This document shows, piece after piece, positions 7,276 through 7,777 of a stretch of 7,777 nt of DNA. Below the pieces are notes generated by a model. That model had not been told where the DNA came from and ran no database searches. It saw only the letters and a program-made list of their open reading frames with translations. The DNA is from a virus (taxonomy: Duplodnaviria; Heunggongvirae; Uroviricota; Caudoviricetes). The DNA is taken from the IMG/VR virus record IMGVR_UViG_2645727743_000027; one strand, given 5' to 3'. Numbering within the stretch: the first letter of the stretch is position 1; each line of letters opens with the position of its first letter. Both the position numbers and the translations under genes were made by a program.

Positions 7276-7360
7276 TTTTATTTTGATTAATAATGACCCA
7301 TGCAATGTAATTTATTGATAATTAAAGAGATTTCAAATATGCAACTTACCTTATTTAAGG
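7276..7360. other. Putative attL: phage P'-type arm with Int arm-type site-like sequences, and a candidate core near 7342-7360
   Basis: AT-rich segment after the int stop. The reverse complement of 7290-7300 is TGGGTCATTAT, close to the lambda arm-type consensus as I recall it, and ATTGATAA at 7313-7320 is IHF-site-like. Homology to the downstream repeat begins at 7349, marking the phage/host junction. Confidence 0.45.
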
Positions 7361-7449
7361 CCCCTTCCTCGGGGGGGGCTTTCCCGTTTCAGCGTCCCGC
7401 TGAAATCTTCGGCTTACCTCCTTTCGTCCTGTATGCAGTCTATCGCTGA
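7349..7449 (+). repeat. Copy A of a ~101-bp direct repeat (host ibs/sib-type repeat), truncated on its left by phage DNA
   Basis: About 92% identical by eye to 7677..7777. Contains hairpins GCCCC...GGGGC and TTTCAGCG-TCC-CGCTGAAA. Sequence to its left is phage arm instead of an ibs ORF. Confidence 0.8.
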
Positions 7450-7540
7450 CTTGCGGATAAAATAGTTTCAAGTGTGATTATTGCGTAACGCCTCGCAAAG
7501 AATATTTGCTGGCAGGATCGCAGACTGCAAAGCCTGCGGA

Positions 7541-7569
7541 TTGACAATCTGACCGTGAAGGCATACTTT
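7541..7569 (+). promoter_or_regulatory. Predicted promoter for the Sib-like antisense RNA: TTGACA (7541-7546), 17-nt spacer, TACTTT (7564-7569)
   Basis: Consensus -35 and a plausible -10 with 17-nt spacing, positioned to start transcription about 36 nt beyond the 3' end of the ibs ORF on the opposite strand. Confidence 0.45.
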
Positions 7570-7575
7570 CAGGAG

Positions 7576-7715
7576 TGAGGGTTGAGCGGGGTTTCCCCCG
7601 CCCTGGTAGTCTTAGTAAGCCGGGAAGCTTATGACTAAGAGCACCACGATGATGATCCACTTCATCATGACCCTTTCCTTATTTATGGCCCCTTCCTCGG
7701 GAGGGGCTTTCCCGT
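7576..7715 (+). ncRNA. sib: Predicted Sib-type antisense sRNA (about 140 nt), fully overlapping the ibs ORF
   Basis: Predicted promoter upstream, full antisense overlap of the 18-aa ORF, and a GC-rich hairpin (7687-7707) followed by TTTCCCGTTT as a likely 3' end. Size and arrangement fit the Sib/Ibs type I toxin-antitoxin family. Ends are approximate. Confidence 0.55.
7612..7668 (-). CDS. ibs: Ibs-family type I toxin, 18-aa hydrophobic peptide MMKWIIIVVLLVISFPAY
   Basis: Minus-strand ORF with an AAGGAAAGGG Shine-Dalgarno upstream; the peptide closely resembles E. coli Ibs toxins (for example IbsC MMRLVIILIVLLLISFSAY, from memory). Under 60 aa so not in the ORF track. Which paralog it is cannot be decided here. 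Confidence 0.8.
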   Translation of the reverse strand: MMKWIIIVVLLVISFPAY

Positions 7716-7777
7716 TTCAGCGTCCCGCTGAAATCGTCGGCTTACCTCCTTTCGCCCTGAATTCAGTCTATCGCTAA
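7677..7777 (+). repeat. Copy B of the ~101-bp direct repeat (ibs 5' region and Sib terminator region); runs to the window end
   Basis: Direct repeat of 7349..7449 with about 8 mismatches by eye; immediately upstream (on the - strand) of the intact ibs ORF. Confidence 0.8.

Follow-up and report, generated by a model that had tools for sequence, protein, structure and literature searches.

The DNA analysed here (referred to as the window) is a stretch of 7,777 nt from the tailed-phage record IMGVR_UViG_2645727743_000027. Its last third contains the phage genes xis and int, which are followed by an AT-rich segment and, at the very end, by bacterial DNA with tandem ibs/sib repeats, a type I toxin-antitoxin (TA) system (Table 1). 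In this study we characterized the phage-host junction. The evidence described below makes it very probable that positions 7276-7362 are the attL (P'-C'-O-B) of a lambda-like prophage which resides in a 21-bp attB of an ibs/sib unit between yegL and mdtA, and that this prophage uses an HK022 integration module with a swapped overlap sequence.

The integrase (Int) comprises the Pfam domains Arm-DNA-bind_1 (residues 1-68), SAM-like (81-158) and Phage_integrase (179-346), and 338 of its 357 amino acids (95%) are identical to those of HK022 Int. The start of its gene is overlapped by xis, and a 100% identical Int is encoded by the lysogens AMSHJX01 and Z1322HEC0003. The AT-rich segment downstream of int (7276-7348, C' site included) is 85% identical to the HK022 attP over 73 nt and is missing from the empty site of the prophage-free strain N10. 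Therefore, this segment is phage DNA, which agrees with a preliminary description of the window stating that phage DNA stands where the ibs/sib body of the first repeat copy should be. Together, xis, int and the AT-rich segment matched HK022, mEp235, mEp506, Gally, H19J and several Stx1a phages at 94-96%. Every match in a phage record stopped at position 7348, and homology to complete Escherichia coli genomes, at a locus just upstream of mdtA, started at position 7345.

The bacterial part begins with a direct repeat. The preliminary description had placed its copies at 7349-7449 and 7677-7777 with about 92% identity; the repeat is real, and its boundaries could be refined to 7345-7447 (copy A) and 7673-7775 (copy B), i.e. 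103 nt with 93% identity and a spacing of 328 nt. The intact Ibs-like open reading frame (ORF) and the Sib-like antisense unit proposed to precede copy B were both recovered. Rfam identified a full-length Sib RNA (SIB_RNA, RF00113) at 7541-7683 on the plus strand with 137.6 bits (gathering score 56, E 3e-29). The 18-aa ORF on the minus strand between the repeat copies translates to MMKWIIIVVLLVISFPAY*, is identical to the RefSeq Ibs family toxin ORF WP_012767741.1, which lies at the same place in the strains D1 and N10, and is fully antisense to the Sib match. Upstream of copy A we detected neither a Sib match nor an ibs ORF or remnant. The unit before copy B thus has the sequence and structure of a Sib RNA as well as the short hydrophobic Ibs ORF antisense to it. 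For the K-12 paralogues it has been demonstrated that Ibs is toxic and that the cognate Sib represses it (PMC2943612).

The intact Sib gene has a -35 element TTGACA at 7541-7546, its RNA starts at about 7571, and its terminator hairpin is located at 7687-7707. Folding of 7569-7712 (-65.5 kcal/mol, z -4.4) resulted in a closing helix (..GACCCUUUCC) that is followed by the single-stranded linker UUAUUUAU and by the terminator hairpin with its U-rich tail. This matches the P1 / J1-7 / P7 architecture given for SibC (PMC2943612). Neither the Sib terminator nor the hairpin tI of the phage was picked up by a simple terminator scan, as the tail or the loop lay outside its rules; both were located by folding.

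Table 1. Position of the features at the phage-host junction (numbering of the 7,777-nt window)
Feature	Position	Strand	Basis
xis, excisionase, 72 aa	6006..6224	+	Pfam Exc PF07825, E 2e-40; homologous to HK022 xis
int, HK022-type heterobivalent tyrosine integrase, 357 aa	6202..7275	+	Pfam domains; identity to HK022 Int
P' arm of attL, AT-rich, with arm-type Int sites	7276..7341		collinear with the annotated P' arm of HK022 attP
C' core-type Int binding site CAACTTA, phage-derived	7342..7348		same as C' of HK022, Gally, mEp235 and H19J
Overlap (crossover) segment CCTTATT, 7 bp	7349..7355		shared by attL, attR, empty attB and inferred attP
B core-type site TAAGGCC, host-derived	7356..7362		same in all intact attL sampled and in unit 2 of the empty N10 site
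Repeat copy A, orphaned distal part of the interrupted unit	7345..7447		93% to copy B; 99.1% to N10 unit 2
Sib terminator hairpin and T-rich tail of copy A	7359-7379	+	homology to the fold of copy B
ibs 5' untranslated region (5'UTR) and probable promoter of copy A	within 7345..7447	-	promoter position inferred
Intact Sib antitoxin RNA gene of the next unit	7541..7711	+	Rfam and fold
ibs toxin ORF, MMKWIIIVVLLVISFPAY plus stop	7612..7668	-	translation; identical to the RefSeq ORF in D1
Repeat copy B, distal part of the intact unit	7673..7775		repeat alignment
Unoccupied attB-like site of the intact unit, ACCCTTT-CCTTATT-TATGGCC	7670..7690		core comparison; one B-arm mismatch to the occupied site

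The host part of the window (7345-7777) is 99.1% identical to N10. As anticipated for a prophage-free genome, this strain carries an uninterrupted array of four ibs/sib units without the AT-rich segment, and it is precisely the 3' end of unit 2 of N10, after the ibs ORF of that unit, at which the host DNA of the window begins. The counterpart in K-12 is the ibsA/sibA-ibsB/sibB array between yegL and mdtA, and the length of this array varies among strains from 2 to 4 units (e.g. K-12-like strains versus N10). Since 328-nt units recur two to four times from yegL to mdtA in prophage-free genomes, the repeat is neither a chance similarity nor a duplication caused by the insertion. A target-site duplication or other insertion-generated repeat was rejected because the repeats are already present in empty sites. 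Because of the varying array length, the gap after int is 344 bp where the mdtA-proximal spacer follows directly and 672 bp where another intact unit comes first, as in the window and in D1.

Comparison of the occupied and empty sites located the crossover. The attL of the window (7342-7362) reads CAACTTA-CCTTATT-TAAGGCC and unit 2 of the empty N10 array reads ACCCTTT-CCTTATT-TAAGGCC. In Z1322HEC0003 the attR reads ACCCTTT-CCTTATT-AAAGGAT and continues into a P arm that is 92% identical to HK022 over 193 nt. Recombination of attL with attR predicts exactly the sequence of the empty N10 site. CCTTATT is the only uninterrupted identity of attL, attR, attB and the inferred attP, and it is bounded by mismatches on both sides. 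A shared core, which had been suggested at 7342-7360, does exist and was narrowed to the crossover segment at 7349-7355. Moreover, the attR of Z1322HEC0003 joins the missing Sib/ibs body to the phage P arm through CCTTATT, and an in-silico excision product assembled from the host DNA on the attR side and the host DNA of the window is collinear with N10 over 850 nt (97.9%, one gap). The empty site of N10 and this attR thereby bear out the earlier proposal of an integration into one unit of a tandem ibs/sib array. Insertion would have proceeded by site-specific recombination of the Int/integration host factor (IHF) type at the 3' side of one ibs/sib unit.

Inversions among lambdoid prophages involve exactly this prophage in D1 and AMSHJX01, and homologous recombination or inversion between prophages might likewise have brought the int end next to the array. 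However, the rearrangements of these two strains break inside the prophage and not at the junction. In Z1322HEC0003 base-precise attL and attR sites surround a single 49.6-kb prophage in the order yegL - ibsA - ibsB - [nleA ... xis int] - mdtA, and the joined flanks restore the empty site, which leaves such a rearrangement with a close to negligible probability.

The attP reconstructed from attL and attR would be CAACTTA-CCTTATT-AAAGGAT and is equal to the HK022 attP (CAACTTA-TTCACCT-AAAGGAT) apart from the 7-bp overlap, in which CCTTATT occupies the position of TTCACCT with 1/7 positions shared. For HK022 it has been described that Int recombines the 21-bp BOB' with the COC' of attP, that the exchange takes place in the 7-bp overlap and that secondary sites need a perfect overlap match (PMC4846993). 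The canonical HK022 attB is located between torS and torT (PMC6814406), and we confirmed this site as canonical in K-12 (AACCTTT-TTCACCT-AAAGTGC) and in torS lysogens. Besides Int, xis and the P' and P arms, the module analyzed here shares with HK022 the identical C' (CAACTTA) and C (AAAGGAT) sites, the 7+7+7 bp geometry and a lambda-type tI/'sib' hairpin in the P arm. The host half-sites are similar as well: B' is ACCCTTT compared with AACCTTT at torS-torT, and B is TAAGGCC compared with AAAGTGC or TAAGTGC at torS-torT and AAAGGAT in C. Accordingly, a three-domain Int, the xis-int overlap and an attL/attR core whose recombination restores attB and attP, with the 7-bp overlap between imperfectly inverted 7-bp core sites, identify a heterobivalent module of the HK022/lambda type. 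In contrast, the HK022 attachment specificity (torS-torT intergenic region, overlap AGGTGAA/TTCACCT) is absent, as the overlap is CCTTATT and the target lies in the ibs/sib array beside mdtA.

To assign the change of target to the enzyme or to the DNA, we compared seven Int proteins of prophages at the ibs/sib site with six of the torS class. They are 93-100% identical with the two classes intermixed, and the highest identity between the classes is 98.9% (Z1323HEC0423 versus a Stx1a phage). The retargeting therefore maps to the overlap and not to the enzyme. Since integrases of this type need identical overlaps in attP and attB, the change of the heptamer shifts the phage from torS-torT to the ibs/sib site, and the best-supported mechanism is an overlap swap in attP that gives the same enzyme a new target. 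In lambda saf mutants the insertion preference is altered through the overlap alone, and overlap identity governs the choice of site. The same rule applies to HK022 (PMC4846993). As in these mutants and in engineered overlap-matched pairs for lambda and HK022 Int, only the overlap is altered here and the integrase and core sites are kept. Unlike these laboratory variants and constructs, however, the present attP allele is natural and has become established in wild E. coli, where it coexists with the canonical allele and is found in about 1.6% of complete genomes.

Alternatively, Int itself could have changed its specificity, for instance through N356 or a combination of alleles, with the overlap difference being secondary. 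Of the 41 variable Int columns residue 356 alone splits the classes, with N in 7/7 proteins of the ibs class and D in 6/6 of the torS class, and the change from lambda to HK022 specificity is known to rest on few Int residues. Nevertheless, C and C' are the same as in HK022, B and B' fit the same half-site pattern, and the near-identity of the closest pair across the classes also speaks against this explanation. The codon of residue 356 (7267-7269) lies about 70 bp from the core, which makes linkage the likely cause of the N/D association, and the C-terminal tail of Int is not known to read the overlap sequence. We therefore consider a change in the integrase very unlikely and retain the overlap swap as the probable cause of the new specificity.

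A second question is whether a dedicated attP variant exists at all, or whether an ordinary HK022-type phage with a TTCACCT attP entered a pseudo-attB by aberrant insertion into a secondary site. Phages of the lambda family use secondary sites at low frequency, and arms, C and C' sites and Int are HK022-like, with B and B' arms that resemble torS-torT. However, the two overlaps agree at only one of seven positions, HK022 Int is reported to require a perfect overlap match for the use of secondary sites (PMC4846993), and both attL and attR contain a clean CCTTATT. Moreover, the attL junction was found in 84/5426 and the attR junction in 92/5426 complete E. coli genomes (about 1.5-1.7%), with diverged Int alleles and differing prophage contents and hosts, which would be unexpected for rare independent accidents. 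For comparison, torS-torT prophages have been reported in about 5% of genomes. The strains with a junction originated from humans, poultry, cattle, pigs, dogs, mice and other sources. Taken together, aberrant insertion is a very unlikely account of the present-day junctions. An event of this kind may well be the origin of the overlap variant. In lambda saf mutants, excision from a secondary site can copy the bacterial overlap into attP; by analogy, an ancestral phage may have excised from a secondary site and taken the bacterial overlap along.

Several observations weigh against the proposed attL with a swapped overlap. Searches of INPHARED, IMG/VR and a metagenome collection gave no free or circularised phage with CAACTTA-CCTTATT-AAAGGAT. 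The attR was read not in the source genome of the window but in other lysogens, which share with the window 100% identity in Int and about 99% in the DNA on the int side. Two positions change together with the target class, Int residue 356 and the base just 5' of C', so that some contribution of the protein is possible. Finally, we infer the transcriptional consequences for the interrupted unit from its sequence. With regard to the searches for the reconstructed attP, exact-pattern scans of IMG/VR gave no match, and 11 metagenome matches to the pattern lacked HK022-type arms and were discarded as chance matches. BLAST of the synthetic attP against phage records returned HK022, mEp235 and Gally only, at about 80% identity and with the canonical overlap. 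A 22-mer of attL had no match among species-representative genomes.

On the host side, all units between yegL and mdtA contain CCTTATT and differ in their B arms (TAAGGCC, TATGGCC, AAAAGCC or TAAAAGC); every intact attL junction sampled has TAAGGCC. The other Sib loci of K-12 lack the exact overlap, with TCCTTCA in sibC and CCTTATA and CCTTCTG in sibD/E. Integration at sibC, sibD or sibE was rejected, as their overlaps differ and all sampled junctions are at mdtA. Judged by sequence, compatible half-sites (..CTTw / wAAG..) and a matching overlap are combined only in the Sib units of the yegL-mdtA array. About 81% of complete E. coli genomes have the perfect attB context, from which K-12 differs by one base. 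Outside E. coli, the 21-mer attB was detected in representatives of further Escherichia lineages and of Citrobacter and Pseudocitrobacter. In strain PK8241 the occupied attL (position 1400 of locus L028) is followed one unit further on (position 1728) by a perfect attB that is unoccupied (ACCCTTT-CCTTATT-TAAGGCC). With attB in tandem, double lysogeny or an Int-mediated loss or gain of units could become possible.

All ten distinct lysogens whose attL region was read adjoin mdtA; nine of them share the core and one is a decayed remnant. Decay is seen in some of the elements, either by an int cut by IS3 or by a mutated core. Truncation of int by an IS3-family element was found in remnant prophages at three ibs/sib loci, PK8241 among them, and in one IS3-truncated remnant the core has decayed to CACTTATT. 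The far end of the prophage is foreign in two strains, with gsp/yghD in D1 and bioA/ybhB, the lambda attachment site, in AMSHJX01. These foreign ends indicate large chromosomal inversions by recombination between resident lambdoid prophages. The far ends of both strains were rejected as a source of attR since the inversions have replaced them. Near the attR end we observed genes for type III secretion effectors, namely nleA (locus L009, 10672-11913), and the recombined arm of AMSHJX01 (locus L006, 23541-28540) also carries nleH, cif and espJ. These genes link the site to a virulence cargo of the type found in enteropathogenic and enterohaemorrhagic E. coli (EPEC/EHEC).

The location of the crossover within the ibs/sib unit suggests consequences for the expression of the split TA pair. 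The overlap comprises the last two base pairs of the closing helix of Sib and the linker and directly adjoins the terminator hairpin on its 5' side. Read on the ibs strand, these 7 bp span positions -9 to -15 from the start codon, within the Shine-Dalgarno region. In the preliminary description the core was thought to overlap both the Sib terminator and the 5' region of ibs; the latter holds, and the terminator is abutted on its 5' side with only the B arm entering the hairpin stem. The half-unit at attR would keep the Sib promoter and body together with the ibs ORF and its Shine-Dalgarno sequence, and it would be left without the ibs promoter and 5'UTR and without the Sib terminator. The toxin at attR would thus lose the promoter and 5'UTR that belong to it. 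In the phage P arm at attR a strong hairpin (-24.4 kcal/mol, z -4.4) with a U run after it is found about 150 nt in; it is located at 10216-10257 on the plus strand of locus L009 and is homologous to the 'sib transcription processing site' annotated in the HK022 record. At this lambda-type tI/'sib' hairpin, about 190 nt further on, the Sib RNA of the attR unit should end. The Sib RNA gene of the host and the 'sib' hairpin of the phage are unrelated elements of the same name that become neighbours at attR, where the phage hairpin probably terminates the host RNA.

The other half of the unit, copy A at attL, would hold the ibs promoter and 5'UTR as well as the Sib terminator immediately downstream of int. 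This orphan terminator is located 84 nt past the int stop codon. The orphan ibs 5'UTR and its probable promoter would point into the P' arm and run antisense to int; the ibs transcription start in these units was deduced from the ibsC and ibsD mRNA sizes. Two sigma-70-like promoter matches were observed in the P' arm itself, one reading outward to the host array (7293-7322, plus strand) and one back into int (7336-7309, minus strand). An outward-reading start site in the P' arm has been mapped experimentally in HK022 (PMC6814406).

A more far-reaching interpretation would be that one Int lineage with two natural attP alleles, which differ only in the 7-bp overlap, gives lambdoid phages, many of them with a cargo of type III effectors, two chromosomal homes, and that the second home was chosen so that integration rewires the TA unit and prophage and array regulate each other. 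The toxin would be cut from its promoter, the antitoxin re-terminated at tI/'sib', and the orphan ibs promoter would fire into int and the P'-arm promoter into the array. We regard this as speculative and rather unlikely. If true, mutual regulation of prophage and array would affect the stability of the lysogen, the expression of Int or Ibs-dependent stress responses.

The remainder of the window corresponds to a lambda-type early-left operon, for which homologous annotated genomes contain bet/exo-type genes. A Lambda cIII thermoregulator was identified at 812-870 on the plus strand (RF01804, 88.5 bits), confirming for the left part of the window a pL operon of the lambda type that is directed towards xis-int. 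Furthermore, an sRNA-Xcc1 match (RF02221, 69.3 bits, gathering score 53) is located at 5170-5258 on the plus strand of the early-left region, just upstream of an Ant-like antirepressor ORF (5298-5921).

Insertion of prophages and islands into small-RNA loci is known from ssrA and, in Salmonella, from ryeA/ryeB. Similar to these cases, the attB described here lies at the 3' end of a gene for a small structured RNA, whose body is preserved via phage-supplied sequence. It differs in that the phage targets a type I TA antitoxin and, at the same site, the ribosome-binding region of the toxin, and in that this target exists in tandem copies. The array resembles the Ibs/Sib type I repeats of E. coli in its full-length Sib, its antisense 18-aa Ibs ORF and its 328-nt period; it departs from the usual repeats in that one unit is split by a prophage and the number of units varies from 2 to 4 with the strain. 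The preliminary description knew of no lambdoid attachment site in such a locus. Accordingly, full-text literature searches, which did not cover subscription literature, retrieved no description of an att site in ibs/sib, and one genome paper tabulates in passing, as 'at yegL', a lambda-like prophage that carries nleH, espJ and cif.

The element is thus a natural overlap variant whose new attB lies within a type I TA unit, and a member of the lambda/HK022 integration family without the attachment specificity of HK022. How temperate phages gain new insertion sites is an old question, and the prophages at the yegL-mdtA array appear to provide a natural example, at the level of populations, of the simplest route, in which only the crossover heptamer is exchanged, integrase and core sites stay as they are, and the phage inserts at a look-alike site that already existed. 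The attB, unreported so far, is defined to the base and is used by effector-carrying prophages of EPEC/EHEC-like strains. It also suggests itself as an orthogonal integration site for HK022-based (CRIM-type) vectors, and the split type I TA unit is a naturally occurring setting for comparing how toxin and antitoxin are expressed when the prophage is present or absent.

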